A DNA stretch of 64,000 bases from Heptranchias perlo. Taxonomy: Eukaryota. The number at the start of each line of letters is the position of its first letter. Within the stretch, counting starts at the first letter, position 1. The stretch covers positions 162,440,001 to 162,504,000 of the forward strand of contig NC_090325.1 of the NCBI RefSeq assembly GCF_035084215.1. The letters are read 5' to 3'. Shown piece after piece: positions 15,457 to 61,314 of this stretch. Made by a program: the position numbers and the translations under genes. The notes beneath the pieces were generated by a model. It was not told the origin of the DNA, made no database searches, and saw only the letters and a program-made list of their open reading frames with translations.

Positions 15457-15514
15457 GCACTGTCAAACTCTTCTGGCTGTTCTCCTTTCCCCGCAGAATG
15501 TTCTGCACCCTCTC

Positions 15515-38859: not shown

Positions 38860-39126
38860 TAATTGTGGTCAATAGATATATGACTTACTTTCAGGTGCAT
38901 CCTTTTGTCTTTTAAAAAGTCCACACTCAAAGACAAAATAGCTAGCATCTGGTTTCTATACTGAAGCTACTTCTTAAAATGGACCAGAAAATAATCTGGA
39001 GTTATTTAAGGAAACAAACTAATAAGACAGGCAAAACAGTTTACTGTTTCATTTTGTTTAAGCATATAGATCAGACCAAGTGAGCAGCTGCAACACTAAA
39101 GAGAGATCATAGAAGTAGACAGTCTC
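38860..39126 (+). promoter_or_regulatory. Putative JCHAIN promoter / 5' UTR
   Basis: Non-repetitive DNA directly upstream of the ATG; MEF2-like GTTATTTAAG at ~39001, IRF-like TGTTTCATTTT at ~39045, weak TATA-like CATATAGA at ~39063, E-box CAGCTG at ~39085. Motifs are imperfect and the TSS is not determined. Confidence 0.4.
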
Positions 39127-39193
39127 ATGATGAAGAGTAAACATATGCTGGGGCCACTAGCAGCAATTCTACTTTACACAGCTCTTGCAGCAG
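39127..39193 (+). CDS. JCHAIN: Immunoglobulin J chain, exon 1 (signal peptide MMKSKHMLGPLAAILLYTALAA)
   Basis: Basic N-terminus, hydrophobic core, ALA-A cleavage-type end; donor CAG|GTAAGG, phase 1, matches exon 2. Confidence 0.85.
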
Positions 39194-39719
39194 GTAAGGT
39201 TTTTAATTATTATTATATCTTGTATTACGGCATATGATGAGTAAATTTTCCTATTTTGTTAGCCAGTAGGGATATAGGAAGACTAGGGTCTTCTCCATGA
39301 TAATTAGACATACCAGCAGTAGAATTATTCTATCTGGGGATACTAGTATGTGCATTCGCAGAAGGTCATAGAAATAGATTTAGTATGGATTGAATTTTCA
39401 GAGTTAATGAAGGAACAATTATATTGTGTATCATGTTGTGTAATCTCTTTGCTGTAAACTAAAGGGGAAAAGGTCATTTTTTGCACACTTTGGTCACAGA
39501 CAAAAACAACTATAATTTTTAACTTACCTGACAGTTATTTCTACCATGTCTGAACAAGCATTTCAAATGTGTCTGTCAGCTCTAATGTTAAAGAATTTTT
39601 AGTTTCTCATCACTGCAAGATAGTTACAGATTAAGCAATAGCTACAGTGGCCACCTGTTACTGTGTATGTCAAAATGTACAGGAGTATTACCTCCTGGTC
39701 AGAGACCCTTCATTTAGTG

Positions 39720-40010
39720 GACTGAGCTGTTTTAGTGGTTGAGGAATAAATGTTAGGCAGGACACTGGGGAGAACTTCCCTGCTCTTCTTCCAGTGGTGT
39801 CATGGGAACTTTTATGTCCACCTATGAGGGCAGGTGATGCTTTGGTTTAGAGTTGACACCTGACGAAGGAGAAAGCCTCCGAAAGCTTGTGATTTTCAAA
39901 TAAAACAGTTGGACTATAACCTGGTGTTGTAAGATTCCTTACATTTGTCAACCCCAGTCCATCACCGGCATCTCCACATCTTGGTTTAGAGTGTCATTCT
40001 GAAGATGGAT
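39720..40010 (-). mobile_element. Deu-SINE fragment hosting a Penelope insertion
   Basis: Matches the core of the SINE at 18196-18645 (GGGGAGAACT.CCCTGCTCTTCTT...TCCACCT). Confidence 0.65.
39854..39980 (+). mobile_element. Penelope-like terminal fragment with minimal hammerhead motif (39857-39891)
   Basis: CAC-CTGACGA-aGGAG aaagc CTCC-GAAAGCTT-GTG; same end sequence as 6706-6831; 12-bp TSD TTGGTTTAGAGT at 39842-39853 and 39981-39992. Confidence 0.85.
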
Positions 40011-42122
40011 GAAAGTGACAATACAAGATCCTCTATACAATGTTCTAAATCATACTAAGAGGCATGTTTTAAAAATATTATGGTATAAAATGGTTTCTTG
40101 ATAAGGGAGGAATCCATATACAATGTATGTTATATCAGAGCTATGATACGTTAAGGATTACCACAGTCATTCTTGAGACAGTCCTTAGGTTGCACATGAT
40201 AGTGGCCTATGAACAGTTTTGCCTCTGATTTTCTCTCTCCGATGGATTAGTGCCTTCTGCTCAGTGCCTTCTAACAGCAATTGATGAGGTTAAAAGCTGC
40301 AATGTGAGGATAAAGCTTTCAGTAACACACTGCACGCACTAGTAATTTAATTTATTAACCATGATACTTCATTAGTCAGATGGTGCCTCTCAGAAGGTAT
40401 TGGATTAATAGGTTCAGTTTTCTATTCCTTCTTGACAGGAAGTAACCTGGCTCTGCTAGATACTTTATTTGGACAGCACAGCTGATAAACAATTTCTTGT
40501 ATCATAGATTTTTTTTAACACACATTTAACCCTTCAGTGATTCAATGAGTTAGTATATTAACATGCCAATGCATTGACAGTCAGCTAATCTCCACTTAGT
40601 TATCTCACACAAATATCAGAAAAATTGTCAGATCAGGCCCTGAAATGAGCTGAATGGTCATTCTGGTTCTAAGTCAAGGCCTTTGTTAAAATTTAAAAAT
40701 GGAAAAGATACAGATGCTGATAAATTTATTGTGGTTTACGATTACTGAAAATTCAGAAAGTGGCATGAGTGTTTGAGTTCAAAGTCTTCTGAATTTAACT
40801 TGTCTATTTTGTAAACAAAGACAAATCATGATAAGCTCATCAGCATTTGTGCCATTGCCTGTTTTAACTTTATCCAACAGCTTTGCCATTCTCCTGTAAC
40901 AAATTTGATATTGTAATTGACTCAAGGCTGGCTGGGAATGCAGTACATTGGCATATTAATGTGGTAGGAAAGGAGCAACAGAGCAGCAGTGTGACTGAAA
41001 TGTAATTTCATGCAATCCAGACAAGTCCATTGGTTCCAAAACTAAGTGAACGGCACCAGTAGTGAGCAAAGTACCCACTCTGGAATGCAAATGTTTGTCA
41101 CAGATACTAAGATGGAAAACTTTAATGACCTGAAAATACAAAACTATTTTCATAACTAGGCTATTAAAATTCAAAATCTAAAACTTGCCACAATTAAAAT
41201 AATTACAATAAAATTAAAGATTGGTACAAACTTTGATAAATCAAAACAATTATTTTTTAAAGAAACAAAAGTTTTCAACAAAAACATCAAGGTTTGTGAA
41301 AAGTTGAAAAATGATAACAAAAACAATGAAATACAATTTCAAAATACAGAAATATAAAAAATCAACAAGCTTGCAGTAAAATGCACAAAACTAAGATATC
41401 AAATTGTAGAACCATACATAAAACTATTTAAAAAACTAAATTCTGCTTCTGAGCTTAAAAAAACTCCAATAATTTCAAAAAGTCCAAAAGATGTAAGAAA
41501 ATACATGTGTTGTTTCATGAAAATGAACTCAAGTCAATTCATGCTGTTCTTTTTTTTTAAAGAGAATTGTATATTGCTTTTTAAATTTTGTGTTAGCTGC
41601 AGAACAGAAAATGTTCTAATTTCTGGCATTTCCAAGTTCCCTCTACCCAAACATTATGCCTTAACCCCAATCTCAAAAGTACGCATTCTACTGCACCAGT
41701 GCAATTTCCATTTCCCATATCAGCCATTTGGCTTCTCCAAATAAGATAGCCAATTGTGGGACAATTTTGGTTCAGCGCTTATGTCAGTGGGTATAGATTT
41801 AATCTATTAGGGGCTTGGGAGGGGAAAAACCACACAGTAATTCAAAAAGTTAGAGAAAAAGACCGGCAGAACATATGACCAGGATTACCCAAATAAGAGT
41901 CCTATACACAAATACACATAGCATGAAAAATAAAACGAATGAGAAGCACAAATTCAGCTTAAAGGATATGACATAGTAGCCATTACAGAAACCTGGCTAC
42001 AAGATGGGCATAATTGGGAGCTGAATATTTTAGGCTATAAGATCTTTAGAAATAACAGGGAAATTGGGAAAGGAGGAGAAGTAGCAATATTGATAAAAGA
42101 CACAATTAGCAGTAGAGATAAA

Positions 42123-43179
42123 GGGCTCAATTTTGAAATGGTGGCATGGTGGCACAGTGGGGGGGAGGGTGGGGGTTGAGGGTGCGCATGGCAAACCCAA
42201 ATAAAAAAAACATACCTTTTCCGACGCAATCGCGATGTAATTGATGGTGATTAAAGTTATTTCTGAGTTTCGCGCCCGGCAGCCAGTCTGTGGCAACCCC
42301 AGAAGTCGGCAGGTTGGAGCCGGCTTCCGAACCCACTCGGGATTTTCGCAGCCCTCCCCCCCCCGCCCCCCTGCCCGCCCCCAACGCAACAGCAATTTGA
42401 TTTTAAAATTGAGCCCAAGGGATTTCAGTAAGGGTGATCAGGCAAAGAATGCAAGACTCTGGCAGGCTGGCTGCCGACAGGAGCTGCAATGCCGAGGAGG
42501 GGGGGAGGAGAGAAAGAGGAGAGAGAGATGTCATCCGGCGCTGGGAGAGTGGAGGGCGCTGAAGATCGGGGAGGAGAGGGGAAAATCGGGGGGGAGGGGG
42601 AGAGAGGAAGATCGGTGGGCAGAGTGGAAGATCAGGTGGGGAGAGGGGAAGATCAGAGGGAGATCGCGGGGGGAGAGGGAAAGATCGGAGAGGGACATTG
42701 GGGGGGGAGAGGAACATTGGAGAGGGAGACATCAGGGGCTTAGGAGGACTTCGAAGAGGGAGACTTCGGTCATCAGAGCAGGGTGGAAAGTTAGATTTAT
42801 TTTGTTTTTTAACTTTGTGCAATGGTTTTTTATTTAACTAATTTAGTTTATTTTTGCCTGATCCGGCCCTTCACAGGTATGAATCGGAAGCTGTCGGAAA
42901 GCCACCCAGGTAAGTTTAAAATCGTTTTAACTATCTACTATGTCAGAAAAAAAGTACCTTAAGTACCTCAATGAAGTATATTTTGTTCTTTAACTATCAT
43001 CCCGCCGGCTTTAATTGCCAGCGGGACGTCCAGATTTGTGAAGCGCACGCACACAGGCGCGTCTGTGGCAACCCCGGAAGTCGGCGGGTTGGAGCCGGCT
43101 TCCAAACCCGCTCGGGATTTTCGCCATTTTCGCACCCCCGCCCCCAACACACCCGCAATTTGATTTTAAAATTGAGCCC
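42123..43179. mobile_element. MITE with TIRs GGGCTCAATTTT / AAAATTGAGCCC (extra internal copy of the right end)
   Basis: 12-bp TIR at 42123-42134 and 43168-43179; second right TIR at 42406-42417. Confidence 0.8.
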
Positions 43180-43404
43180 AAGGGATTTCAGTAAAGGTGA
43201 TCAGGCAAAGAATACAAGTCACTGGTAGGAGTTGTCTACAGACCTTTTCATAATAGTGATGTAATGGGAGGATGTGTAAATACGGAGATCAGGGAAGCGT
43301 GTCACAAATACAATGTGGTTATAATGGGAGATTTTAATTTTCACATAGACTGGGGGAAACAGAATAATTTCTAGAATATATTCAAGACTGTTTTCTAGAA
43401 CAGA

Positions 43405-45050
43405 GGGGGTGGAAATTGGTTAAGGGTCCGTTCTGGGCGATGTTCGCGACACCCCGCGCCCAACAGACCCTGGGCAGGCAAGACGCAAGTTTGGTCCCAA
43501 GGGAGCACTTACCTACAATCAGCCTTCCTTTCCAGGCCTTGCATGTGGAATCAATGCAATTCACACTTTCCACCACCAGATGGAGCTCCATCTCTTAAAG
43601 GGAGGATGTTTCTTAGAAATCTCTTAAAGGTAGCTTGTACCTGGTATTTGCTGAAAATAACAGTCCACTGTCTGCACGGAGTCTGAATATACATCAGACA
43701 TCGCATACGTAAAACACAGATGCAGATCCCATCCCTATGTTTACACACTGATGAGTTATGTTAAAACATTGAATAAAGTTGCGCATTACTAAATCCCACA
43801 TCCTCCAATCTGCACACCAGACCTCACCAATCTGCCGATCTGAGTTTGTACCAGGCCTGCGAGAGTGCGTGCACCAAGGTTCTCTGCTGATGCACTAGAG
43901 ACCTTGGGTGCAAGAGGTGGACAGAAGGAGGGACATCCTATATCTGCAGTGGGCGGGGGGGGGGGCTAGTGGCAAGAGGCCCTCCAGACATATACTCAAA
44001 AGGCAGTGGGAGGCAGCGGGGGACGAAGTCAATGCCAGGCGCACAGCATCATGAACATGGATGCAGTGCAGGGAGAAGTTCAATGCTTTGATATGAGTGG
44101 GCAAGGTGAGTGAGGTCAACTGTCAAGTGACGTCTCCTACCAACTGCACCACGCACTACATCCCCCCATCTCCCACATACCAATAAACTCTTTCCATCAG
44201 TACTCAACTCTTCCAATCAGATGCTTCCTCCCGCCCTTACACATTACCACTGTTTCAAGCCGCCCACCCACAACTCACAGGCCACACATACTGGCACATC
44301 ACCCAGCCACATGACTCGCTTTCTTGCAGGAGAAGGTGGCGCATATCAAGAGGCAGCAAGTGGCAGTGGCATTTAACCCCTCGAGCCTGTTCCACCATTC
44401 AGTGAGATCATGGTGGACCTGTGACCTAACTCCATATACTCGCCTTAGCCCCATATCCCTTAATACCCGTGGTTCACAGAAATCTATCAATCTCAGATTT
44501 AACATTCACAAGTGAGCTAGCATCAACTGCCGTCTGCAGAAGAGCGTTGCAAACATCTCCCATCCTTTGCATGTAGAAGCATTTCCTAACTTCACTCTGC
44601 ACGTCCTGGCTCTAAATGTTAGGCTATGTCCCCACGTCCTAGTATTGAAGCCTAGGAGACCTCCAAAAACAGTTACAAATGTTTCGGCAGCCAGAGGCAA
44701 TAATCCAGCCACTAACCAGTAAACCCTGCATGGTACCTTTAAATAGCGCCGGTTGGGGGTCCTCCAGCACTCTAAGACATGTTCAGATGATCGGGGTTAA
44801 GACTATGCGTTGAGTTGAGCGTTAAGTCCCAAAATGGTGTTTATCACTTTAAATCAGCGTTGCACACTGATTGAAGCCATTTTCTCCCTACTTTACATGA
44901 TTCCAGCGTTTCTTATCTGCGCCTATACCAAGATGGCGTCTGGCACACGTCACGCAAGAAAGGTGCGTGCACATCCAAGACGCCATCTTGGATGTCGGAG
45001 AGGCCGTGTAACGCCGAAACAATGGGCGCTACACGGCCCAATTTAGCGCC
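43405..45050 (+). mobile_element. Harbinger family B, non-autonomous (Myb/SANT exon remnants plus captured CR1 3' fragment)
   Basis: Ends GGGGGTGGAAATTGG / CCAATTTAGCGCCC; APRFSADALETL..QEVDRRRDILY..QCREKFNAL; CR1 3' end on - at ~44370-44645. Confidence 0.8.
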
Positions 45051-46744
45051 CAATATGTTTTAGAACCGACAAGTGAACAGGACATACTAGATTTAGTAAT
45101 GAGTAACTGACCAGAATTAGTTAACAATCTGATGGTGAGAGAACATCTTGTGAATAGTGATCATAATATGATTGAAGTTGATTTTAATTTTGAGAGAGTG
45201 AAAGGAAAGTTACAAACCAATGTACGGCAAACTTCGAATGGATGAGAAATAAATTGACCACAGTAAACTGGGCTGAGCAGTAATGAGTAAACCTACAGAC
45301 AAACAGTGGAAAGTATTCAAAGAAGTATTTGGTATGATACAAAACCAGTATATATCCCTAAAAGGCAAAGCTACACTTGTGTAGTTAAGCAACCATGGTC
45401 ATCAAATAAGGTAAGAGACAATATAAAACTAAAAGAAAAGGTTTTCACAAATTCAAGGAAAAGTAAAAATCCAGCGAACTGGGAGAGCTATATAAGAAAG
45501 TAATAAGTGCAAAAAATGAATATGAAAAAAAAATTGCAAGAGATATCAAAGCTAACAGCAAAAGTTTTTATAAGCATATTGAGAGAAAGGGTGGTAAGGG
45601 GGAATGTGGGGCCATTAAAGACAGATGCAGGTGAGACTATAATGAAAATTAAGTAAATGGCAGTCTTGTTAAATGAATACTTTGTATCCATTTTCACAGC
45701 GGAGAAAGAGGACACAATATCAACGGTACAAGGAAACCTTAATTGAAGTCAAAAGGGAGGAACTTAGTAAATATAATATACATTTTTAAATGGTAATGGA
45801 GAAAATAATGGGACTTATGATAGACAAATCTCCAGGACATAATGGCTATTACCCCAGGGTATTAAAAAAATTGGTGAGGAAATTGTAGGCTCATTAGTCA
45901 TAATTTTCCAAAGCTCTCTTGATTCAGGAAGTGTACAGAGAGAGGTTGGGGAACAATGAGCTTCAGCGCTGCGGTGCTCAGGGGTTTCAATAAAAACATG
46001 ACCCAGGGCCACACTCACTTCCTCCCAGAGGTCTCCTTCACCTTCCTCTCTGCAGGATTTGTAAAGGTTATTTTTTCCTCTTTATATCAGGTAACTGCAG
46101 ATCTGTCAGTTTAGCATCAGTTGTGGGGAAGTTATTGGAATCTATCATCAGGGACAGTGTGACTGAGCACTTGAACAAGTGAGTCACTATGGATTTGTGA
46201 AGGGTAGGGTACATACGACTAACCTAGCTGAATTTTTTGAGAAAGTCACTAGCGTAGTGGATAGGGGACTGCCTTTGGACGTTGTCTATATGGATTTCCA
46301 GAAGATGTTTGATAAGGTTCCACACAAGAAATTATTAGGAAAAATGAAAACAAATTGGAGGTAACAGTGTGATATGGGTTGGTAATTGATTCGGAGGTAG
46401 GAGACAGAGAGTAGGGATAAAAAAAATGTTCTCTGATTGACAGGATGGGACAAGTGGTGTTCCCCAGTGATCTGTATTGGGGCATCAGATACTATATATA
46501 TCAATGACTTGGATGAAGGAATAGAGAGTTATATATGCAAGTTTGCAGATGACACAAAGTTAGGAGGCTCAGCAAGTTGAGTAGATGGGAGCAGGAAATT
46601 ACAAAGTAACATTGATAGATTAAATGAATGGACAAAGCTGTGGCAGATGGAATTTAATATGAGGAAGTGTGAGGTCATCCACTTTAGATCCGAGGAAGAC
46701 AAATCAGAATATTTTCTTGATGATATTTGTATTTCATCATACCA

Positions 46745-47125
46745 GACCACATCCTAGTGAATCTACATTGTACCCTTTCCATAGCCTCAATATCCTTCCT
46801 AAGTGTGAAGTCCAATGTTGCACTCAGTATTCTAACAGAGGTCTTATTAAGGTTTTATATCTCATCATTACCTCTTGGCTTTTATAGTCTATACCTCCTG
46901 AGGTAAAACTTAGAATTTCTTTATCATTTTTTCAGCCTTATCAACCTGAGGTGCTACCTTTAATGTCCTGTGAATCTATACCCCCAAATCTCTCTGCTGT
47001 TCCACAGCATTGAGCTTACCTCTATTCAGAGTATTAGTACCAAAATGCATCACCTCACACCTACTGACATTGAATTCCATTTGACACTTTTTAGCCTCCT
47101 TCTTATCAATATCCCTTGGCAGTTT
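46745..47125 (-). mobile_element. CR1 fragment
   Basis: QMEFNVSRCEVMHFG, EQQRDLGV in minus ORF 46976-47161. Confidence 0.75.
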
Positions 47126-47691
47126 CCTTTGTTGTGAAGGAGACAGTAATTTAATAAACAATCACGTGAGTAGTTTATAATCTCAATCCTATTCCAGAAT
47201 GTACCTTGGTATATTATTTTTTAGAATAACAGTTTCTTCCTGTTACATGATACTGATGCTGGGTAGCTCTGGCACCCACAGTAACTTCTGTGAAAGCAAG
47301 TTTCTTATTAGTAGTTGCCGATGAGGTCTGGTCTCAGGGATGGTGTTGGTGGTCACCTAGAATGCTTAATGCATTGGCCCTACTGGTCAGCTGCTTTTCC
47401 TTTCCAACCCTTCTGGTTGAGGCCTGACACTGCCATAACTAGTCCACCAAGTGCTTCTGTTAAATAGCATTCTTCCCCGAAATTCACTCTGACAGTGAGA
47501 CAGTGTATGCATCTGAGAAGTAGAGCTATCGTGTCCTCACACTCTGAAACCAAACTATTACCCGTACTGGTGAGGCAATTAATGTGTGAACTGAGCTTAC
47601 AACTGGGCTTTCAATACAGGAAACACTAGTTCCTCATTTGTAATAACAGTGCTTCAGATTTAGAGAGCAATAACCATGTCTATCTTCACAG

Positions 47692-47818
47692 CTGACTCTG
47701 AAAGCCACCTTCTAGTCGAATCGAAATGTAAGTGTTTGAAGGTGACATCCAGGATAGTCGTTACTGACACTCCTAATGGTGGACAACAGGAGCATCTCGT
47801 GAGAGATATAAAAATTGT
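47692..47818 (+). CDS. JCHAIN: Immunoglobulin J chain, exon 2 (ADSESHLLVESKCKCLKVTSRIVVTDTPNGGQQEHLVRDIKIV)
   Basis: Acceptor TCTTCACAG|, donor |GTAAGT; aligns to human LVDNKCKCARITSRII...VERNIRII. Confidence 0.95.
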
Positions 47819-50158
47819 GTAAGTAGATGCATTGTTGTACCCTGATCATATTCACCACACAGCAAGAAAATGGAATGGCATATTACCAGTTACTGATTGT
47901 AGGCAGTTTTGTGCTGTGAACATATGTCCACAAGAAAATGGGTTCAGTCTAATGGATCCTTAAAACATAGAGGAGATAATCATCACATCAATTAGGACTG
48001 GATCCCAGGTATAGCACAGTTCTTCTGTCGGGAACGCATATCAGGAATTTTGACAAAGAACCCCCCCCCCCCAACAATTTTATGTCCAAGTTGAGCATGG
48101 AGGCCAGCAAATCTGTAAAATCTACTCCTACATTTCTACTTCTGCATGCAAGAGACAGAATTCTAGGGAATGCTACTGCCTCAAAGAGAGTTCAGAGGCA
48201 GGAGAAGCAATGTGCACAGCTTTGGTGCTATTATTCTTGCAGTCTTTTTCCTAAATAAATTCTATATTTCTCTAAGGAGCAAATCCAAGAGCTGCAAACT
48301 GTTGTTGCACTGAACTAAAAATGGAAAACAGTGACATCCACAGTCAGGATTACTGCAGGTAGTTGAACTTGCCTTCACTGGATGAATAGTTAGTTGTTGT
48401 TCAGGTTGCTGGACAAGGTGCTGTGTGAGCAGTTCATGGAGGTGTAGCGACCATAAGAAGTGGAAAACAGCTGATACCAGCTGATCACAAAATAAAAAAC
48501 AGGACCAACCGTTAAACACACTTATAAAACCTTTGCCTTTCGCTTCCGACTACTTCTACGTGGTGCATCCTCTGTGGCTGCAGCAGAGGTAGTGGCAGGT
48601 TGCTCTTGTTCATGCCCTGATCGCTTAGATGCTTTGGGCCTACGCCCTCTGGGTTTTGGTGCCCGTGAGGCCCCCTCCAAAGATTGCTCCACCTGCACCT
48701 GTGCAGGGGCAGACTCGGCCACCTGGAGAGGAGACAGCATTGCGGGTACTGGTTGAGAGGGGGGCAACGGGTGAGATGTGGGAGCGCTTTGAGCACCTCC
48801 TGCTCCATGTTCCCTTTCGCCATCATCCTTCCCCTGGGCCAGGCCCATATCACTCCCACCACTCTGCTGGATGACAGTTTGGAGGACATGTGTGAAGCCT
48901 TGTAAGGCCAGTGCTAGTGTATATGCCTGGGTGTTTAAGGCAGCAGAATGTTGTTCACTGTGAGTCCGAACGGCCATTGTCAGAGCCTGAATGGGCTCAT
49001 TTGTGAGCCGTGCTGGAAGTTCAATGGATGCTAGCCTACTCTCCATCACACACAGTCCCACACTTACCCGTGACAGTATCTCAGGGAGCTGCTCATGTCC
49101 CAGTGACACTATCTCAGAGATTCCCTCACGTCCCTGTGCCACCATTCCACTCATGCAGGAGTTGGATTCCTCCATCTTCTGTGCTATTGAGGTGCTGAAG
49201 ATGGCAAAGCATGTTAACATCAATTCATATTGTGTGTGCTGAATGTTAAGGTTATGCCACCAGACGTTTGTTGGGTGCCAGTCTCGGTGTCCCTGTCGGA
49301 CGGGCACTCGAGGGTTCGGCTAAGTTCCAGCGCCTCCTGCTCCGTGTCTGTGAGGACAACGATTTCTGGTGGCCCCACTCCAGTCCTCGCCCTCTCTTGT
49401 GCATTCTGAGCTCTCTTCTCCTATAAGGGGAGAAAGTACAGACATGTGAGTGAGTGATGGTGACGTGGCCAACCAATAAATGCATTGGTTTGGGTGTGGC
49501 TGACTTTGAATGAGATGCCTGAGAGGGTGAGTATGAGACAGAGCCATGACATTGTATGAGGATTGGGTTGAGTGATAGTGGTGGGGTGACTAATAGGGAG
49601 GTGAGGAATTGCTGAGGAAGTGCAGGTAAGTTGAGGGTGAGCCTTAAGTGGGTGTGGGGAGGGATGCGATAGAGTAGTGTTGGCAGGGCAGAATGAGTTG
49701 GGGGGTGGGGGCGGTGATGTGGAAGACGGAATGTAGGAGAATCAGTAAGTGTACTCACTTTGACTGACCTAGTTAGGTCATTGCTTCCTGCAATGGATCC
49801 AGGTGCGGGATATGTTGCTGCTGATGGTGACCTCCTCTGCCACCTAGAGCCAGGCCTTGGCGGCAGAGGCAGGCCACTTCCTCCCGTCCAGCGGGTAAAA
49901 CACATCCCTCCTCCTCCTCACCCCATCCAGTAGCACCTGGAGTGAGGCATAATTGAAACTTAGAGCAGTCTTGCCTATGTGCTGCTCCATTGTGGTGTGA
50001 GGGTGTTTGCTCCAGGAAAAGTTAGAGTTTGTGGATTCTAGAGTCTCTGTTGTGTAGTGGGGGACTGCTGTTCAGCAAGGGCCCTTGAGTATACCTTTTA
50101 ATTGAAGTGAAATTGGTGGGATTCATTTAATTTGAATTAATTAGTTAAAGGGTAAGTC

Positions 50159-51109
50159 ATGTCAGGACAGCCCAGCCCCGTGTTATGCTCTTCCTGCTCT
50201 ATGTGGGAAATCAGGGACCCTTCCGGTGTCCCTGACGACCATGTGTGCGGGAAATGTATCCAGCTGCAGCTACTGACAAACCGCATTGCGGCACTGGAGC
50301 TGCGGATAGATTCATTAAGGAGCATTCGCGATGCTGAGAACGTCGTGGATAGCACGTTTAGTGAGATGGTCACACCGCAGGTAAAGGTTGTACAGGCAGG
50401 AAGTAATTGGGTGACCACCAGGCAGAGTAAGAGGAGCAGGCAGGCAGTGCAGGGGTCCCCTGTGGCCGTCCCCCTCTCAAACAAATATACCGCTTTGGAT
50501 ATTGTTGAGGGGGATGACTTATCAGGGGAAAGCAGCAGCAGCCAACTTCCTGGCACCAGGGGTAGCTCTGCTGCACAGGCTGGGAGGAAAAAGAGTGGAA
50601 GAGCTATAGTGGTAGGGGATTCTATCGTAAGGGGAACAGACAGGCGTTTCTGTGGCCGTAAACGTGACTCCAGGATGGTTTGTTGCCTCCCTGGTGCCAG
50701 GGTCATGGATGTCACTGACTGGCTACAGGGCATTCTCAAGGGGGAGGGTGAGCAGGCAGAGGTCGTGATCCACATTGGGACCAACGACATAGGTAGGAAG
50801 GGAGATGAGGTCCTGCATCAAGAATTTAGGGAGCTAGGTAGCAGATTAAAGAGCAGGACCTCAAAGGTTGTAATCTCTGGATTACTCCCAGTGCCACGGG
50901 CTAGTGAGTATAGAAATAGGAGGATAGAACAGATGAATGCGTGGCTAAAGAGTTGGTGCAGGAGGGAGGGTTTCAGTTTCCTGGATCACTGGGCCTGCTT
51001 CTGGGGAAGGTGGGACTTGTACAAGTCGGACGGGTTGCACCTGATCCAGAGCGGGACAAATATCCTTGCGGGGAGGTTTGCTAACACTGTTGGGGGGGGT
51101 TTAAACTAA
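50159..51109 (+). CDS. CR1 ORF1p: zinc-finger/coiled coil plus SGNH esterase
   Basis: CSSC..CGKC, leucine-zipper-like segment, GDSIVRG, HIGTND, DGLHL; 316 aa uninterrupted. Confidence 0.92.
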   Translation: MSGQPSPVLCSSCSMWEIRDPSGVPDDHVCGKCIQLQLLTNRIAALELRIDSLRSIRDAENVVDSTFSEMVTPQVKVVQAGSNWVTTRQSKRSRQAVQGSPVAVPLSNKYTALDIVEGDDLSGESSSSQLPGTRGSSAAQAGRKKSGRAIVVGDSIVRGTDRRFCGRKRDSRMVCCLPGARVMDVTDWLQGILKGEGEQAEVVIHIGTNDIGRKGDEVLHQEFRELGSRLKSRTSKVVISGLLPVPRASEYRNRRIEQMNAWLKSWCRREGFSFLDHWACFWGRWDLYKSDGLHLIQSGTNILAGRFANTVGGGLN

Positions 51110-54021
51110 CTTGGCAGGGGGATGGGATACAGAGTGGAGCTACAATAGGGGGTGATGTGCAGCCAAATATAGAGAAAAAAACAAGTCAGCTTGGAAGACA
51201 GGGCAAATATGTGAGGGCAAGGCTGGATGGCATCTATTTTAATGCAAGGAGTCTTGCAAATAAGGTGGATGAACTGAAGGTGTTGATAAACACATGGGAG
51301 TATGACATTGTTGCTGTCACAGAGACATGGTTGAGGGAGGGACAAGACTGGCAGCTCAATATTCCGGGGTACAGAATCTTCAGGCGAGACAGAGGGGGAG
51401 GTATAAGAGGAGGGGGGGTCGCAATATTAATTAAAGAATCAATTACTGCCATAAGGAGGGATGATATATTAGCAGGTTCCTCGAATGAGGCCATATGGGT
51501 GGAGCTTAAAAACAAAAAGGGGGCAAGCACTTTGATGGGAGTGTACTATAGGCCCCCAAACAGTCAGGGGGAGATAGAGGAACAGATATGTAGGCAAATC
51601 TCAGAAAATTGTGCAAATAATAGGGTAATAATAGTGGGGGATTTCAACTTCCCCAATATTAACTGGGATACTCAGAGTGTAAAAGGCTTAGAGGGTACAA
51701 AATTCTTAACATGCATCCAGGAGAGCTTTTTGAGCCAGCATGTAGAAAGTCCTACAAGAGAGGGGGCGGTACTGGACCTAATTCTAGGGAATGTGGCCGG
51801 CCAAGTGGAAGAAGTGCTAGTAGGTGAGCACTTTGGTGATAGTGACCATAATTCGGTGAGATTTAAGGTGGTCATGGAAAAGGATAGGGAGGGGCCGGAA
51901 ATAAAGGTTCTAAATTGGGGGAAGGCCGATTTTAATAGGATAAGGCAGGATCTGGCCAAAATGGACTGGGATCAGCTGCTTGTAGGAAAATCCGCATCGG
52001 AGCAATGGGAGTCTTTCAGAAGGGAGATTGAGACCATACAATGGCAACATGTTCCCGTAAAGGTCAAGGGTGGTTCCAAGAACTCCAGGGAACCTTGGAT
52101 GTCAGGGGATATACGAGAATGGATTAGGAAAAAAAGGAGGGCTTTTGGCAGATACAAAAGGCTAAAGACGGAGGAAGCCCTAGAGGAGTACAAAAAGTGC
52201 AGGGGGATACTTAAAAAGGAAATTAGGAGATCAAGGAGGGGCCATGAAATAACACTGGCGAGCAAAATAAAGGAAAATCCTAAGATGTTTTATAAGTATA
52301 TTAAGGGTAAGAGGATGACTAGGGAAAAAATAGGGCCCATTAGGGACAAAAATGGCAATCTGTGTGTGGAGCCGGCAGATGTAGGAGGGGTTCTAAATGA
52401 ATTTTTTACATCTGTTTTCACTATGGAGAAGGACGACGTAGACATAGAAATACGGCAGGGGGACTGTGATATACTCGAACATATTAACATCGAGCGGGAG
52501 GAGGTATTGGCGGTTTTAGCAGGCCTAAAAATGGATAAATCCCCAGGCCCGGACGAAATGTATCCCAGGCTACTGTGTGAGGCAAAGGAGGAGATTGCAG
52601 GGGCTCTGACACATATATTCAGAACCTCTCTGGCCACAGGGGATGTGCCAGAGGACTGGAGAACCGCTAATGTAGTACCATTATTCAAGAAGGGGAGTAG
52701 GGAAAAACCGGGGAACTACAGGCCAGTGAGCCTAACATCAGTGGTAGGAAAATTATTGGAAAAAATTCTGAAGGACAAAATTAGTCTCCACTTGGAGAAG
52801 CAAGGATTAATCAGGGATCGTCAACATGGCTTTGTCAAGGGAAGATCATGTCTGACTAATTTGATTGAATTTTTTGAGGGGGTGACTAGGCGTGTGGATG
52901 AGGGTAACGCAGTGGATGTGGTATACATGGATTTCAGTAAGGCCTTCGATAAAGTCCCCCACAGGAGACTGGTCAAGAAGCTACGAGCCCATGGAATCCA
53001 AGGTGCCTTGGCACTTTGGATACAAAACTGGCTTAGTGGCAGAAGGCAGAGGGTGATGGTCGAAGGTTGTTTTTGTGACTGGAAGCCTGTGGCCAGTGGG
53101 GTACCACAGGGATCGGTGCTGGGTCCCTTGCTGTTTGTGGTCTACATTAATGACTTGGATATGAATGTAAAAGGTATGATCAGTAAGTTCGCTGATGATA
53201 CAAAAATTGGTAGGGTGGTAAATAGCGAGGAGGATAGCCTCAGTCTGCAGGACGATATAGATGGGTTGGTCAGATGGGCGGAACAGTGGCAAATGGAATT
53301 TAACCCGGAAAAGTGCGAGGTGATGCACTTTGGAGGGACTAACAAGGCAAGGGAATACACAATGAATGGGAGGACCCTAGGCAAGACAGAGGGTCAGAGG
53401 GATCTTGGTGTGCAAGTTCACAGATCCCTGAAGGCGGCGGAACAGGTAGATAAGGTGGTAAAGAAGGCATATGGGATACTTGCCTTTATTAGCCGAGGCA
53501 TAGAATATAAGAGCAAGGAGGTTATGATGGAGCTGTATAAAACACTGGTTAGGACACAGCTGGAGTACTGTGTGCAGTTCTGGTCGCCACACTACAGGAA
53601 GGATGTGATCGCTTTGGAGAGGGTGCAGAGGAGATTCACCAGGATGTTACCAGGGCTGGAGCGCTTCAGCTATGAAGAGAGACTGGGAAGATTGGGTTTG
53701 TTTTCCTTGGAGCAGAGGAGGCTGAGGGGGGACATGATTGAGGTGTACAAAATTATGAGGGGCACAGATAGGATGGATACTAAGGAGCTTTTTCCCTTCG
53801 TTGAGGGTTCTATAACAAGGGGACATAGATTCAAGGTAAAAGGCGGGAGGTTTAGAGGGGATTTGAGAAAGAACTTTTTCACCCAGAGGGTGGTTGGAGT
53901 CTGGAACTCACTGCCTGAAAGGGTTGTGGAGGCAGGAACCCTCACAACATTCAAGAAGCATTTGGATGAGCACTTGAAATGCCATAGCATACAAGGCTAC
54001 GGACCAAATGCTGGAATATGA
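51100..54021 (+). CDS. CR1 ORF2p: APE endonuclease plus reverse transcriptase (no in-frame ATG before the EN catalytic residues)
   Basis: YFNARS, VTETW, YYRPP, GDFN, SDHN, NYRPVSLTS, PQGSVLGP, FADD; frame open from 51085; ends GNAGI-type NAGI* two codons short of the usual WD*. Confidence 0.92.
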   Translation, partial: FKLTWQGDGIQSGATIGGDVQPNIEKKTSQLGRQGKYVRARLDGIYFNARSLANKVDELKVLINTWEYDIVAVTETWLREGQDWQLNIPGYRIFRRDRGGGIRGGGVAILIKESITAIRRDDILAGSSNEAIWVELKNKKGASTLMGVYYRPPNSQGEIEEQICRQISENCANNRVIIVGDFNFPNINWDTQSVKGLEGTKFLTCIQESFLSQHVESPTREGAVLDLILGNVAGQVEEVLVGEHFGDSDHNSVRFKVVMEKDREGPEIKVLNWGKADFNRIRQDLAKMDWDQLLVGKSASEQWESFRREIETIQWQHVPVKVKGGSKNSREPWMSGDIREWIRKKRRAFGRYKRLKTEEALEEYKKCRGILKKEIRRSRRGHEITLASKIKENPKMFYKYIKGKRMTREKIGPIRDKNGNLCVEPADVGGVLNEFFTSVFTMEKDDVDIEIRQGDCDILEHINIEREEVLAVLAGLKMDKSPGPDEMYPRLLCEAKEEIAGALTHIFRTSLATGDVPEDWRTANVVPLFKKGSREKPGNYRPVSLTSVVGKLLEKILKDKISLHLEKQGLIRDRQHGFVKGRSCLTNLIEFFEGVTRRVDEGNAVDVVYMDFSKAFDKVPHRRLVKKLRAHGIQGALALWIQNWLSGRRQRVMVEGCFCDWKPVASGVPQGSVLGPLLFVVYINDLDMNVKGMISKFADDTKIGRVVNSEEDSLSLQDDIDGLVRWAEQWQMEFNPEKCEVMHFGGTNKAREYTMNGRTLGKTEGQRDLGVQVHRSLKAAEQVDKVVKKAYGILAFISRGIEYKSKEVMMELYKTLVRTQLEYCVQFWSPHYRKDVIALERVQRRFTRMLPGLERFSYEERLGRLGLFSLEQRRLRGDMIEVYKIMRGTDRMDTKELFPFVEGSITRGHRFKVKGGRFRGDLRKNFFTQRVVGVWNSLPERVVEAGTLTTFKKHLDEHLKCHSIQGYGPNAGI

Positions 54022-54237
54022 GATTAGAGTAGACCGGGCTTGATGGCCGGCGCGGACACGATGGGCCGAAGGGCCTCTATCCGTGCTGTATAACTCTATG
54101 ATTCTATGACTCTATAAAAGCCAATAGAGGACTGCCCCTTTAAATAGAGCTCCTCCACCTGACAGCCTGTGATGCGAATGTGCAGTCCGCCCACTGCGCA
54201 GCTTTCAGATGGCAATCCCGGAAGCCAGGTTAAGTAT

Positions 54238-56648
54238 GTAATGCACTCTGGGTGGGGGACTTCAATGTCTATCACCAAGAGTGGCTCGGTAGCACCACTA
54301 CTGACCGAGCTGGCCGAGTCCTGAAGGATATAGCTGCCAGACTGGGCCTGCGGCAGGTGGTGAGCGAACCAACACGAAGGAAGAATCTACTTGACCTCGT
54401 CCTCACCAATCTACCTGTCGCAGATGCATCTGTCCATCACAGAATTGGTTGGAGTGACCACCGCACAATCCTTGTGGAGATGAAGTCCCGTCTTCACACT
54501 GAGGACACCATCCAACGTGTTGTGTGGCACTATCACTGTGCTAAATGGGATAGATTCAGAACAGATCTAGCAGCTCAAAACTGGGCATCCATGAGGCGCT
54601 GTGGGCCATCAGCAGCAGCAGAATTGTATTCCAGCACAATCTATAACCTCATGGCCCGGCATATTCCTCACTCTACCATTACCAACAAGCCAGGAGATCA
54701 ACCCTGGTTCAAGGAGGAGTGTAGAAGAGCATGCCAGGAGCAGCACCAGGCATACCTAAAAATGAGGTGCCAACCTGGTGAAGCTACAACACAGGACTAC
54801 ATGCATGCTAAACAGTGGAAGCAACATGCCATAGACAGAGCTAAGCGATTCCACAACCAGTCGTGAATGGTGGTGAACAATTAAACAACTAACGGGAGGA
54901 GAAGGCTCCGTGAACATCCCCATCCTCAATGATGGCGGAGTCCAGCACCTGAGTGCATAAGGCAAGGCTGATGCGTTTGCAACTATCTTCAGCCAGAAGT
55001 GCCAAGTGGATGATGCATCTCGGCCTCCTCCCGATATACCCACCATCACAGAAACCAATCTTCAGCCAAATCAATTCACTCCATGTGATATCAAGAAACG
55101 GCTGAGTGCACTGGATACAGCAAAGGCTATGGGCCCCGACAACATCCTGGCAGTAGTGCTGAAGACTCAAGAACTAGCCGCGCTTCTGGCCAAACTATTC
55201 CAGTACAGCAGCAACACTGGCATCTACCCGACAATGTGGAAAATTGCCCAGGTATGTCCTGACCACAAAAAGCAGGATAAATCCAATCCGTCCAATTACC
55301 GCCCCATCAGTCTACTCTCAATCATCAGTAAAGTGATGGAAGGTGTCGTTGACAGTGCTATCAAGCAGTACTTACTCACTAATAACATTCTTACCGATGC
55401 TCAGTTTGGGTGCCGCCAGGACCACTCGGCTCCAGACCTCATTACAGCCTTGGTCCAAACATGGACAAAGGAGCTGAATTCCAGAGGTGAGGTGAGAGGA
55501 CTGCCCTTGACATCAAGGTAACATTTGACCGAGTGTGGCACCAAGGAGCCTTAGTAAAATTGAAGTCAATGGGAATCAGAGAGAAAATTCTCCAGTGGCT
55601 GGAGTCATACCTAGAGCAAAGGAAGATGGTAGTGGTTGTTGGATGCCAATCATCTCAGCCCCAGGACATTGCTGCAGGAGTTCCTCAGGGCAGTGTCCTA
55701 GGCCCAACCATCTTCAGCTGCTTTATCAATGACCTTCCCTCCATCATAAGGTCAGAAATGGGGATGTTCGCTGATGATTGCAGAATGTTCAGTTCCATTT
55801 GCAACCCCTCAGATAATGAAGCAGTCTGTGCCTGCATGCAGCAAGACCTAGACAACATCCAGGCTTGGGCTCATAAGTGGCAAGTAACATTCGCGACAGA
55901 CAAGTGCCAGGCAATGACCATCTCCAACAAGAGAGAGTCTAACCACCTCCCCTTGACATTCAACGGCATTACCATCACCGAATCCCCCACCATCAACATC
56001 CTGGGGGTCACCATTGACCAGAAACTTAACTGGACCAGCCACATAAATACTGTGGCTATAAGAGCAGGTCTGGGTATTCTGCGGTGAGTGACTCACCTCC
56101 TGACTCCCCAAAGCCTTTCCACCATCTACAAGGCACAAGTCAGGAGTGTGATGGAATACTCTCCACTTGCCTGGATGAGTGCAGCTCCAATAACACTCAA
56201 GAAGCTCAACACCATCCAGGACAAAGCAGCCCGCTTGATTGGCACCCCATCCACCACCCTAAACATTCACTCCCTTCACTGTGGCTGCAGTGTGTACCAT
56301 CCACAGGATGCACTGCAGCAACTCGGCAGGGCTTCTTCGACAACACCTCCGCGATCTCTACCACCTAGGAGGACAAGGGCAGCAGGCACATGGGAACAAC
56401 TCCACCTGCACGTTCCCCTCCAAGTCACACACCATCCCGACTTGGAAATATATCGCCGTTCCTTCATTGTCGCTGGGTCAAAATCCCAGAACTCCCTACC
56501 TAACAGCACTGTGGGAGAACCTTCACCACACGGACTGCAGCGGTTCAAAAAGGTGGCTCACCACCACCTTCTCAAGGGCAATTAGGGATGGGCAATAAAT
56601 GCTGACCTTGCCAGCGATGCCCACATCCCATGAACGAATAAAAAAATT
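54238..56648 (+). mobile_element. CR1-group LINE family B (EN part, RT, 3' UTR, A tail), frameshifted
   Basis: GDFNV, WSDH, NYRPISLLS, PQGSVLGP, FADD, HHHLLKGN*; TSD-like TTAAGT / TTAGT. Confidence 0.9.
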
Positions 56649-57044
56649 AGTGGCACCAATTGACTCGCGATCGAGTGCGAAACGGACATTTTTTATTGGA
56701 CGGGTTACCCATGCGCCCAATCACCATCCCCCCCTCCCCCACTGCCATCCCGCCTCCACTCTAATATCGGGGCCAATACTGTGAAGTTCAAAGTTACTTA
56801 ACAGGTGCAATATAACTGACCTTTGACTCTATTAATTATCCAGCCCTCAGTTTCAGTGTTATTGCTATTCAGCCACATTGTAAAGAAGTTTGAATGATTG
56901 ATTTTAATAATTATTTTTGTTTTAATTGTTTTAATTAACAGCAGTATACAAACCTCATCAGCAACGAAAGATGTCCACACATAAAATGATCTAGGAGAGT
57001 CTCCAGTAATCTTGGAATGACTATTGATTGCTCTTTTATTACAG

Positions 57045-57125
57045 AGTTCCCATGAGAAGCAGAGAGAACATTTCAGATCCAACCTCCCCTCTTCGGACCA
57101 AGTTTGTCTACAAAATTTCAGATTT
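57045..57125 (+). CDS. JCHAIN: Immunoglobulin J chain, exon 3 (VPMRSRENISDPTSPLRTKFVYKISDF)
   Basis: 81 nt, phase 2/2, TTTTATTACAG| ... |GTATGA; contains the hallmark RENISDPTSPLRT.FVY motif. Confidence 0.98.
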
Positions 57126-57907
57126 GTATGATTACTATTTTTTGTCACTTTTGCAATGTGTAATTACAGTGAACTTCAGATCATTACCCCAATCCCAGTA
57201 ACTAAACTCAGACTTTACAATTTATTGTGCACATGTATAGCAAATGGAAAACAGCAGCTCAATTATCCACTATCAGTTGTCTGAAGTAATTTTGACTCTT
57301 TCAAATGGATCAGATCATTCAGAAACAACTGTCTGATTACTTTATAGCCACAGTATCTATGTTCAAATGTTCGTTTCATGGTGTACAACACTGCCAAGGT
57401 TGAAAAGAGTAGGAGAGAAGTTGAGATAAATGAAGAAGTAATAACACTAACGCCAGGACTTTCCTCGGAGCTGTTCCTGCTCATGTTCTGCAGACATAAC
57501 TTCGCTGGAAGTGCGGCAGAGACCCTGTTCATGTGCGCAAATTGTTTTTCTGCTGCTCTTTCAGGAAAGTTAGGATGGCGGAGTGCGAACAGCTCAGGGG
57601 AAATTATTGACATTACCTAGAGTTCTAAAAGCCTGTAGAGTGTCGGAGGAAGGGAAAAATAGGAAGAAATGTATTTTGAGGACCCAGGAAAGAATGAATT
57701 GGAGTCAGAGACTGCAATTTCAATACAATGAGCATGCAGGGACGAAGAGGTGTGAGACAGCATATTTGGAGCAATGACCATAGTAGCGTTGATAGAATAT
57801 AGAATACCTATAGCCATGCATTTGTGTTGTGGATTTATCAGCTCCTCGTGGCTGTTCAGCGGGAAGTTAAAACTACATCAATTATAGGCAAAGTGGTGGA
57901 GATTATC

Positions 57908-59725
57908 GGGGTTATATTGGATAACCCATGAATCTAGGCACGGGAGTCGCGGTGCACGATTAACTTGTGCCCAATTGTTAAGATGCAGGTAGCACGTAAC
58001 ACTCTTGCTGCCTGGTGATTTCTATGATTGCTGCGAGCAGCCAGCGCTACCTGAGCTATTAAGTAGCTGCTCACCGGCAGGGGGACCCGACATCATGAGT
58101 GGCTAGCACTGCTTAAAGGCAGCCTGCACCTCTAATTGGCAAAATATAAAATACGGGTCTGCACAGAATCTAAATGGAGATCAGGCATCGCACACATAAA
58201 ACACAGGTACAAGTCCCATTGTTTACAAACTGTTGAATTATTTTAAAACATTGAATAAAGGTTGCACACTAGTAAATCCCACAGCCTCCAATCTGCACGC
58301 CAGACCCCACCAATCTGCCGATCTGAGTTTCTACCAGGCCTGCGAGAGAATGTGCACCAAGGTTCTCTGATGATACACAAGAGACCTTGGTGCAAGAGGT
58401 GGACAGAAGGAGGGACATCCTATATCTGCAGGGGTGGACAAAAGGCCCTCCAGACATATGCTTCTGAGGCACTGGGAGGCAGTAGGGATGAAGTCAATGC
58501 CAGGCGCATAGCACCACGAACATAGATGCAGTGCAGGAAGGAGTTCAATGCTTTGACCTGAGTGGTCAAGGTGAGTGAGGTCACCTGTCAAGTGGCATCT
58601 CATACCAACTGCACCACTAGTCGCATCCACTGCCCCACACACTACACCCCTCATCACCCACCTACCAACAAACCCTTTCAATCAGTGCTCAACTCTTCCA
58701 ATCAGATGCTTCCTCTCACCCTCACACATTACCACTGTTGCAAGCCGCACACCCACAACTCACAGGTCACACACACTGGCAGCTATTCAACCATGACAGC
58801 CACATCACCCAAACATCTTGCAGGATATTTACTGACACACGTCCCGCTTTCTTGCAGGTGAAGGTGGCGCATAACAGAAGGCAGCAAGTGGTAGTGGCTC
58901 CATGGAACATGAACTTGCTGTCCCCTCTCAGGATGACAGCATTCCTGTCCCACCCCTACCACTCCACCAGTGCTCTTGCTGTTGCCTGTCAGCTAGCCAG
59001 CTCACTCCCTGTAGAGTATTGAAACTTTATTATAGGAAGATAGGAACAGGAGTAGACCATTTAGCCCCTGGAGCCTGTTCTGCTATTCAGTGAGATCATG
59101 GCTGATCTGTGACCGAACTTCATATACCCGCTTTAGCCCCATATCCCTTGATAGAATCTATCAATCTCAGATTTAAAATTAACAATTGAGCTAGCGTCAA
59201 CGGCTGTTTGCAGAAGAGCATTCCACCCTTTGTAGAAGCATTTCCTAACTTTATTCCTGCACGTCCTGGCTCTAATTTTTAGGCTCTGTCCCCTAGTCCT
59301 AGTATTCAAGTATAGGAGACCTCCAAAAACAGGTACAAATGCATCAGCAGCCAGAAACAATAATCCAGCAACTAACCTATAACTCCTGCATGATCCCTTT
59401 AGATAGCACTGGTGGGGGGGGTCCTCCATGATGTTTAAGACCTGTTCAGCTGTACGAGTTTAAGACAGTGGAGCGCTGGAGCGTTGAGTTCCAAAATCGC
59501 ATCTGTCCCTTTATATCAGCGTTGCACGCTGATCTACCGCATAATCTCCCTACTTTACATGCTGCCAGTGTTCGTTGTCTGCGCGTGCGCAGTCGCCTTT
59601 ACCAAGATGGCATCCAGCGCACATCACGCTAGAAGTTTGCGCTCACATTCCAGATGCCGTTTTGGGTCCTTAGGCGTCCGTGTAGGGCCTACGAAACGGG
59701 TGCTACACAGCCCAATTTAGAGTCC
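57908..59725 (+). mobile_element. Harbinger family B-related non-autonomous copy (JCHAIN intron 3)
   Basis: Ends GGGGTTATATTGG / CCAATTTAGAGTCC; Myb exon remnant, CR1 fragment and right portion homologous to 43700-45050. Confidence 0.78.
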
Positions 59726-60747
59726 TATGGGTTTAATGATGCTTTATAATTCAAAAGAATTGGCTCAGTTCTAGTACACCGAAAGCTGTGCGAGTGCTGA
59801 ACAGTAAATCAAGTGATTTGTTGCAGCTAATGATTTGTAATTGTAGACATTTGCAGGTATTGTGCTGTAGCAAAACACTTGTCCTACTGTTCAGATTATT
59901 CTTGTATGGTGTAGAGCAGAGGCTCCAACCTATGTTCTGACAAGGCCCGCTTACCTTATTCATCAGTTTTACAGATGGGACTCTGCCTCAATCCTGGTTT
60001 TTATGGGGTCAGTAGACGTCTCTCTCCTCTTTCACCCTAAGTTTCTATTCATTCTCGGCATCAGCTACGCTCCCTTTCCCTGTTACTCTTCCCCTCTCTT
60101 TCTGTTACTCTCTCTGACTGCTTGTAGTCCTTTCTCTGCTATTCCATTAATCTTTTCCAGCTACATCCCCTTTCCTCCAGTGATCTCTCCCAACTGCTGC
60201 TGCAGCCCCCAATCCTTTTTATAATTGGGTCACCCTATGTTTTATCTCTTCAAATCGTTTGTCGGCTGGAGGATAACAATAAAAGATTTGAAAAGAAACA
60301 GGATGTAGTGGAGCGTCATACAAGAGGTTCCCTCAAACAGCTGGTCAGTGCACTAGTTTTGTTGCATCTTAATGGACAATTCTGATTAAATGACTTCACC
60401 ATTCAGAACTTTATCATAGTCTGCCAGAAGAGGACCCTGCAGGGAGAAAAAATCATTGAGACCCATTCCGCTGCAGGAAGTGCGGCGAGTGGAAATTGCG
60501 GATGCCACTTTGCCCGTTGTTGACCCAAATGATCTTTCAGCTAAAGAGTTATATTTATGGGGGAAAGTGCTGGCAGTTTCTATGGAGCCACTTTCCTACA
60601 GCACTGTGATTGACTGCCATTAGGAAGCCAGCATCAATCCCCCACTACCTAGCTCGTACAGTAAGGAAGACTGCTTACTCATGGATTGTCCTCTTGAATT
60701 CGCTACAAATGGATGGTAGTTTCATGCAAAAGAGTTTTCAGACATTT

Positions 60748-60774
60748 GAATCATAGAATCATAGAATCATAGAA
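60748..60774 (-). repeat. (GAATCATA)n microsatellite, isolated CR1 3' tail
   Basis: Same octamer as the CR1 tails elsewhere in the window. Confidence 0.6.
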
Positions 60775-60920
60775 CGTGTGAAATGAATTGGAAAATTAAT
60801 TATAAAAAAATTCCAATGCATATTAGGTGAATTATTCTTATCTGAACATCTAGTAACTTTCAGAAAGCAGTACTATGTGTTCAATACCAATTATGTCTTT
60901 GATAATATATTTTGTTGCAG

Positions 60921-61179
60921 CTGCAAGAATTGCACCCAAAAGGCAACCTCTTCGCTAGAACCTCAGTGCAAACCTCAACCTCCACCAGAAGATACATGTT
61001 ACGCCTATGACAACAGAAAATGCCTGTACCATAAAATCAACTTAGGAGATGGCAAGCAAGTGGATACTCTCCTGAATCCTGAATGCCTCAATCATAAAAA
61101 TGACCTCTGGTTTCCAAAACCTACGCTGTCACCTGTTGAAACAACATATGATTCGGCATCTATGTCAGATGCTCCGTAG
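60921..61179 (+). CDS. JCHAIN: Immunoglobulin J chain, exon 4 (CKNC...QC...EDTCYAYDNRKC...LNPEC plus 30-aa tail)
   Basis: Acceptor TTTTGTTGCAG|, phase 2 in frame with exon 3; aligns to human CKKC...ETCYTYDRNKC...LTPDAC; stop TAG at 61177-61179. Confidence 0.95.
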
Positions 61180-61308
61180 ATATGCTCTAAAGACCATAAT
61201 TGTACCTGTATCTTTATGTCTTTTTAGCTTTGGCATTTAAGGCTTGCAGATCTTTTGCCTTCTTCAAGCAGACTATAAATTGCTTCATAGCTTCAACTCT
61301 TGTTTCGT

Positions 61309-61314
61309 AATAAA
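61309..61314 (+). terminator. Probable JCHAIN polyadenylation signal AATAAA
   Basis: 130 nt after the stop, followed by T/GT-rich sequence. Confidence 0.6.

Follow-up and report, generated by a model that had tools for sequence, protein, structure and literature searches.

The immunoglobulin J chain gene (JCHAIN) of the sevengill shark Heptranchias perlo is spliced from five exons, one of which is a 33-nt piece of a transposable element (TE). The gene lies in a 64,000-nucleotide stretch of the H. perlo assembly (G000:C1:162,440,001–162,504,000; hereafter the window, with positions counted from its first letter), and its identity as JCHAIN is near certain. The explanation that we consider highly probable is that a 33-nt stretch of a miniature inverted-repeat transposable element (MITE) in intron 1 is used in frame, yielding a 188-residue precursor that likely caps IgM pentamers and carries a tolerated 11-residue N-terminal extension. 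It starts from what could be observed directly, namely the identity of the gene, its exon joints, the TE origin of the exon, the cysteine set, the synteny and the single genomic matches of exons 2 and 3. This JCHAIN is in itself an ordinary gene; its fifth exon is an exception to the four-exon rule for JCHAIN, caused by a transposon in a core antibody gene. RefSeq already annotates the gene, extra exon included, and the novelty here lies in the transposon origin of that exon and in how cysteine losses are distributed among lineages. The parts of the gene are as follows.

39044–39126, + strand: 5′ untranslated region (UTR), minimum extent, without an ATG; a contig of the sequencing run X5, from a relative, begins at 39044
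39127–39193, + strand: exon 1, coding part, encoding the signal peptide with a putative cleavage site; from splice joints and a helix at residues 8–29 of a low-confidence model
42877–42909, + strand: extra in-frame 33-nt exon, phase 1-1, residues 23–33 of the five-exon protein (P0001); from joints in run X1 and a translation equal to the RefSeq protein
47692–47818, + strand: ancestral exon 2 with the CXC motif (C46 and C48 of P0001, human C13 and C15); from joints and profile match
57045–57125, + strand: ancestral exon 3 with the NISDP glycosylation block; from joints and profile match
60921–61179, + strand: ancestral exon 4, coding part, with six cysteines (the codon of the first split across the joint), a shortened hairpin 2, hairpin 3 and a 30-residue tail ending in SDAP; from joints and alignment
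61180–61322, + strand: 3′ UTR with AATAAA at 61309; a contig of X5 reaches 61322

Identity and genomic setting of the gene

P0001 matches the Pfam J chain profile PF15097 with 109.7 bits (cut-off 27; E = 1.3e-31) over profile positions 2–130 of 134. Exon 2 alone and exon 3 alone pass the cut-off, and exon 4 falls below it (E = 0.0027). The best PDB sequence matches of each of exons 2, 3 and 4 are J chains, as are all eight PDB sequence matches of P0001. A UPAR_LY6 match on exon 4 (E = 0.022, under the cut-off) and neuraminidase matches on exon 2 (E > 0.6) were set aside as chance. A search with exon 4 found, at 100% identity, the H. perlo RefSeq protein XP_067849185.1 ("immunoglobulin J chain-like", 188 residues), which is identical to the five-exon translation and is the sole member of its 90% cluster. 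Its name is automated, and the record makes no mention of a TE origin of residues 23–33. Exons 2 and 3 have one genomic match each in the assembly, counts that are lower bounds on the number of paralogs.

A first-pass annotation of the window had described a complete four-exon gene hidden among TEs. The elements it listed are in the sequence as described (four exons with GT..AG ends, phases 1, 2 and 2, 534 nt, 177 residues, eight cysteines and the NIS site), and its identification as a shark J chain is borne out by the profile match. The gene is annotated in RefSeq, however, so it was not hidden, and the reading as complete missed the 33-nt exon, since both the X1 transcripts and RefSeq have five exons encoding 188 residues. 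Its expectation of a link to CXCL genes held, with CXC exon-2 matches upstream of JCHAIN.

Chondrichthyan jchain is linked to CXCL cluster A and anxa5 (PMC10801876). We found this linkage in H. perlo, with gene order as in sawfish: six CXC exon-2 matches lie 0.40–0.77 Mb upstream of JCHAIN (C1:161.70–162.07 Mb), and annexin exons, on the minus strand and not typed as ANXA5, begin 23 kb downstream (162.524 Mb; span 162.52–162.59 Mb). A second cluster of CXC exon-2 matches lies at 121.7–122.0 Mb. JCHAIN lies 0.40 Mb from the closest CXCL match (G000:C1:162,074,724–162,479,127), compared with 29 kb in sawfish, and the search may have overlooked divergent cxcl genes.

All JCHAIN genes have been stated to have four exons (PMC10801876), and 16 of 16 jchain rows that we took from Dataset S1 of that paper have phases 1-2-2. 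The H. perlo gene departs from this four-exon, 1-2-2 architecture of JCHAIN and CXCL genes (Kawasaki 2024) in having five exons and intron phases 1-1-2-2. Because the three ancestral intron positions are kept, it is a derived exception and not evidence against a chemokine origin. Our literature search, judged from titles and the starts of abstracts and covering papers outside subscription, returned no report of a five-exon JCHAIN, of Heptranchias JCHAIN or of this MITE.

Transcripts include the extra exon

RNA evidence consisted of assembled contigs of public sequencing runs placed on two parts of the window, 47600–61400 and 38800–48000; run X2 was compared on exons 2–4 only. Since spliced joints appear, the runs hold RNA, though none of those matching exon 4 is recorded as such. 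Run X1 shows zero differences from the window across 1,016 and 1,241 bases of intron 3 and therefore comes from the same species, possibly from the source animal.

In X1, exon 1 is joined to the extra exon (39193 to 42877) in five contigs and the extra exon to exon 2 (42909 to 47692) in four, both with GT..AG ends. The direct joint from 39193 to 47692 occurs in none of the X1 contigs and in one contig each of the relatives X5, whose exons are about 95% alike, and X11. Exon 1 is without cover in X3. Of the joints predicted by the first-pass annotation, 47818 to 57045 is present in contigs of four of four runs. For 57125 to 60921, X1 and X2 agree with the prediction to the letter, and the X5 and X9 contigs place the joint 1 or 4 letters away, with letters differing at the start of exon 4. 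The third, 39193 to 47692, was seen in relatives and not in the same-species run. Five-exon splicing is thus the form seen in H. perlo transcripts and in RefSeq. The pattern is one of exonization, with an extra exon spliced on both sides in X1, direct splicing in relatives and the insert in one of 21 chondrichthyan J chains, that of Heptranchias. Rough contig depth was 260k for exon 1, 292k for the extra exon and 280k for exon 2, figures that we did not count because contig depth cannot rank gene parts.

The extra exon belongs to a Harbinger-type MITE

The extra exon lies inside a short transposon.

42123–43179, no strand assigned: PIF/Harbinger-type non-autonomous element, 1,057 bp, with 17-bp terminal inverted repeats (TIRs) and flanks AAA and AAG; from inverted repeats and copy comparison

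The TIR arms (42123–42139 and 43163–43179) are 17 bp long and 94% complementary. The element sits inside a decayed long interspersed nuclear element (LINE) fragment whose reading, judged by eye, resumes across it, and 42286–42466 duplicates its 3′ end plus flank (43061–43229). Searching the assembly with 221 bp around the exon returned 3,395 candidate matches; among the best 40, which were scored, the 39 other copies were 87–92% identical. We fetched 29 of these other copies, chosen as best matches, so that the share with an intact cassette may be high. Both element ends were located in 11 of the 29, with lengths of 721–1,495 bp, and 3-bp flanking duplications were exact in seven of these 11 and agreed in two of three letters in the other four. 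Harbinger elements generate 3-bp target site duplications, as described in the sections of PMC9179366 available to us.

Matches to the DDE_Tnp_4 transposase number 34,316 candidates in the assembly, and many of the best 150, which were scored, lie in open frames of about 500 residues. The terminal part of the element (42950–43179) resembles 16 of 20 fetched DDE_Tnp_4 loci, 12 of them at E ≤ 1e-10 (best E = 1.7e-31). One such locus (L056) has its terminal 12 bases in common with the element at one end; no second end turned up within the 3.5 kb of the locus. A Harbinger transposase (L059, near L019) was set aside, as it seems to be part of a separate element with its own end. By these features of its sequence, the host element is a high-copy PIF/Harbinger-type MITE. 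The abundance of Harbinger transposase sequences suggests a large, possibly recent expansion in this genome; none were detected in elephant shark according to the same sections of PMC9179366.

Within the window, Harbinger-type DDE_Tnp_4 transposase and Myb/SANT frames also occur at 3113–4048 (−) and 15284–15988 (−). A second repeat adjoins the MITE at 43389–43700 and is 83% identical to 5394–5700 on the opposite strand.

A splice cassette shared by the MITE family

Across the 29 other copies, the acceptor AG of the exon is kept in 25, the donor GT in 23, and both, 33 nt apart, in 19. These 19 intact cassettes are open in phase 1 in 17 cases, in phase 2 in all 19 and in phase 0 in none. A 35-nt motif of cassette plus donor has 556 exact matches genome-wide, the JCHAIN copy included, and the reversed control has none. 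Judged from the copies, the AG–33 nt–GT cassette is a feature of the MITE family. At 16 of 219 sites, the copy in JCHAIN departs from the majority of the family (2–6% in other copies). Differences from that majority affect 5 of 33 exon sites and 10 of 173 sites in the flanks, a comparison that gives no sign of conservation and, in so short an exon, could not reveal selection.

42835–42842, + strand: candidate site for the branch point, presumed to be used as such, with an A at 42841 that precedes the acceptor by 35 nt

The candidate site matches five of seven letters of the branch-point consensus, and its changes at 42838 and 42840 are present in none of the 29 other copies. These two private changes likely improve the branch point of the JCHAIN copy. 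That a gain of branch point triggered use of the exon is plausible but weak.

The encoded protein

The eight cysteines of P0001 (46, 48, 104, 107, 119, 129, 137 and 158) correspond to human C13, C15, C69, C72, C92, C101, C109 and C134 in the numbering used in the part of PMC7956327 that we consulted. The asparagine of the NISDP block, N84, is invariant in 24 of 24 aligned rows. A second sequon, NCT, lies within a CXXC motif (window 60925–60933) and is probably unused, because its cysteine is likely disulfide-bonded.

The N-terminus is hydrophobic, with a helix at residues 8–29 in the low-confidence AlphaFold model. The insert sits at the signal-peptide boundary. Small residues at 21–23 of P0001 still fit the −3/−1 rule for signal cleavage, so the insert likely stays as a disordered leader at the front of the secreted protein; its predicted local distance difference test (pLDDT) score is under 50. 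Frog and snake J chains have 5–7 residues in the alignment columns of the insert, and tetrapod J chains vary in the length of their N-terminus. Twelve residues separate the leader from the C13–C15 pair that follows it, which starts IgM binding in mouse (PMC11729874, in the passages available).

The model has strands at residues 39–75 and a hairpin at 139–153. All 15 Foldseek matches at E ≤ 0.001 were J chains, and no chemokine was among the listed matches of this weak model. A Pro/Thr-rich 30-residue tail ending in SDAP (window 61087–61176) is present in 16 of 21 chondrichthyan J chains, from sharks and rays, and absent in tetrapods; it reaches beyond the C-terminus that binds pIgR in mammals.

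A model for the gain of the exon, and its rivals

We propose that the MITE would have inserted into intron 1 already bearing an acceptor, 33 nt and a CAG/GTAAGT donor. The cassette would be free of stops there, since intron 1 is of phase 1; in a phase-0 intron it would contain a stop. Two point changes may then have improved the branch point and activated the exon. The signal peptide would still be cleaved at or before Gly23, leaving the insert as a floppy leader ahead of the CXC strand. In the endoplasmic reticulum of the plasma cell, the chain would dock on the μ tailpieces of the nascent pentamer, with C48 and C104 bonding two tailpieces and with internal disulfides C46–C129, C107–C119 and C137–C158 predicted by analogy with mammalian J chain. 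The docking, tailpiece bonds and three internal disulfides of mammalian J chain are described in PMC11729874 and PMC7956327, as far as the portions that we used extend.

Several points weigh against this account. Inclusion of the exon was seen in the single sample of X1, contigs drop rare variants, and the RefSeq model may draw on the same reads. The shorter side of each joint is 27–28 letters long, as set by exon length, and was placed at 88% likeness, and contig depth is unreliable, the exon 3–4 joint of X1 having a depth of 539 compared with about 25,000 for the other three. The improvement in the branch point is small, as 8 of the 29 other copies also reach five of seven letters somewhere, and an AG at 42845 closely follows the candidate site. 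C158 is one residue off human C134, and MAFFT keeps it outside the tetrapod column. The AlphaFold model is weak, with a pLDDT of 54.8, a predicted template modelling (pTM) score of 0.34 and no disulfide geometry.

In a different picture, the four-exon, 177-residue form would be a major transcript, with the MITE exon spliced in as an alternative cassette in some tissues or individuals only. TE-derived exons are mostly alternative and of low inclusion (PMC2562518, in the sections to hand), X1 is the sole informative run, contigs show presence and not absence, and the direct joint is the one found in the relatives X5 and X11. We nevertheless judge this improbable, given zero X1 contigs with the direct joint against five and four with the inclusion joints, and no 177-residue record in the cluster of P0001. 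A still more doubtful possibility, which we find hard to credit, is that the exon is an artefact, arising from contigs of other repeat copies fused to JCHAIN exons and then followed by the annotation pipeline. In its favour, the repeat around the exon is high-copy, contigs of other copies also cover it, and joint sides are under 30 letters; however, both joints have GT..AG ends and use the copy located between exons 1 and 2, ordered and in frame, in five and four contigs, and the opposite side of each is a JCHAIN exon. In-frame use of the MITE exon stays our preferred explanation, and close relatives that skip the exon offer a clean natural comparison for it.

A broader idea is that copies of this Harbinger MITE family act as mobile 33-nt exons that come ready-made, so that one or two branch-point changes would activate copies, the same 11-residue peptide would occur in many shark proteins, and JCHAIN would be the first case, with near-complete inclusion. 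We think this rather unlikely. If true, hundreds to thousands of copies would carry an acceptor and a donor, stop-free in phases 1 and 2 and with a stop in phase 0.

Other elements in the window

JCHAIN intron 2 holds a LINE at 50156–54021 on the + strand, the strand of the gene, with a GDSL-esterase ORF1 (open reading frame 1; 317 residues) and a 978-residue endonuclease–reverse transcriptase frame. Further upstream, a 30-bp tandem array at 21409–26382 and 29668–30653 (166 and 33 copies, 90–93% matches) flanks a LINE endonuclease (26500–27459) and reverse transcriptase (27460–29463). Four overlapping ORFs of 1,200 residues at 21285–25204 are stop-free readings of the array, without a Pfam match.

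Cysteine loss among chondrichthyan J chains

We aligned 21 chondrichthyan proteins with MAFFT, a set without chimaera that omitted three skate paralogs, a partial Chiloscyllium record and, in a second alignment, P0008. A protein tree recovered galeomorphs (100/99) and batoids (97/95) and did not place sharks in one clade; it was used for grouping only. All eight cysteines are present in five of the 21 (Heptranchias, Pristis, two Mobula and Narcine), so the state is not unique to Heptranchias. Pristiophorus has seven, without C69, and all 11 galeomorphs, including nurse shark AAO14897.1, have six, without C15 and C134, whereas all four skate J chains end after C101. In Pristiophorus japonicus (P0002) a leucine stands at the equivalent of C69, a tailpiece-binding cysteine; galeomorphs lack the other, C15.

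Because five chondrichthyan sequences and tetrapods have eight cysteines, this state is, by parsimony on an alignment without chimaera, likely ancestral, and the losses in galeomorphs and skates appear to be separate. For five sharks, the CKL state had been recorded earlier, in the rows that we consulted in Dataset S1 of PMC10801876, a paper that describes the elasmobranch J chain C-terminus as unique. Nurse shark is the source of the view that the C-terminus of shark J chain is poorly conserved (PMC4279169, citing Hohman 2003, in the excerpt available); in our alignment this state is specific to galeomorphs, skates having lost the C-terminal part separately. The suggestion in the first-pass annotation that nurse shark J chain lacks C-terminal cysteines stood in part: AAO14897.1 has six cysteines and no C134 equivalent, yet it keeps those of C101 and C109, and the N-terminal C15 is also gone. 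Cysteines 3 and 6 are given as missing in nurse shark in the portion of PMC3743840 that we consulted, which differs from our alignment. Heptranchias and three batoid genera, with eight cysteines and hairpin 3, are better models of the ancestral J chain, and the same taxa are suited to asking what role hairpin 3 had before pIgR transport.

Comparison with known systems

Sawfish (Pristis pectinata XP_051900091.1), Mobula and Narcine resemble Heptranchias in having eight cysteines, the CXC motif and hairpin 3; sawfish also has the same cxcl–jchain–anxa5 order and lengths of exons 2–4 of 127, 81 and 256, as in Heptranchias. These taxa differ in having no N-terminal insert (60–69% identity), and sawfish has four exons. 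Nurse shark AAO14897.1 and the other galeomorphs have in common with Heptranchias the NISDP block, the C13, C69, C72, C92, C101 and C109 equivalents and the SDAP tail, but they have no insert, hairpin 3 is eroded and the C15 and C134 equivalents are gone in 11 of 11. Human and mouse J chains (PDB 6kxs_J, 8r83_J and others) match the shark in cysteine pattern and glycosylation block, with about 40% core identity. The shark J chain is near neutral (isoelectric point 7.1–7.7, against 4.59 in human), its hairpin 2 loop is about eight residues shorter than in human, and its tail after the last cysteine is 30 residues long compared with three.

The gain of the exon resembles that of Alu exons in primates, which likewise draw on latent splice sites from a repeat family, with few changes likely activating one copy (PMC2562518, in the sections to hand). 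Unlike Alu exons, the Heptranchias exon was donated by a DNA-transposon MITE, as a frame-preserving 33-nt cassette, into the coding region of an immune gene.

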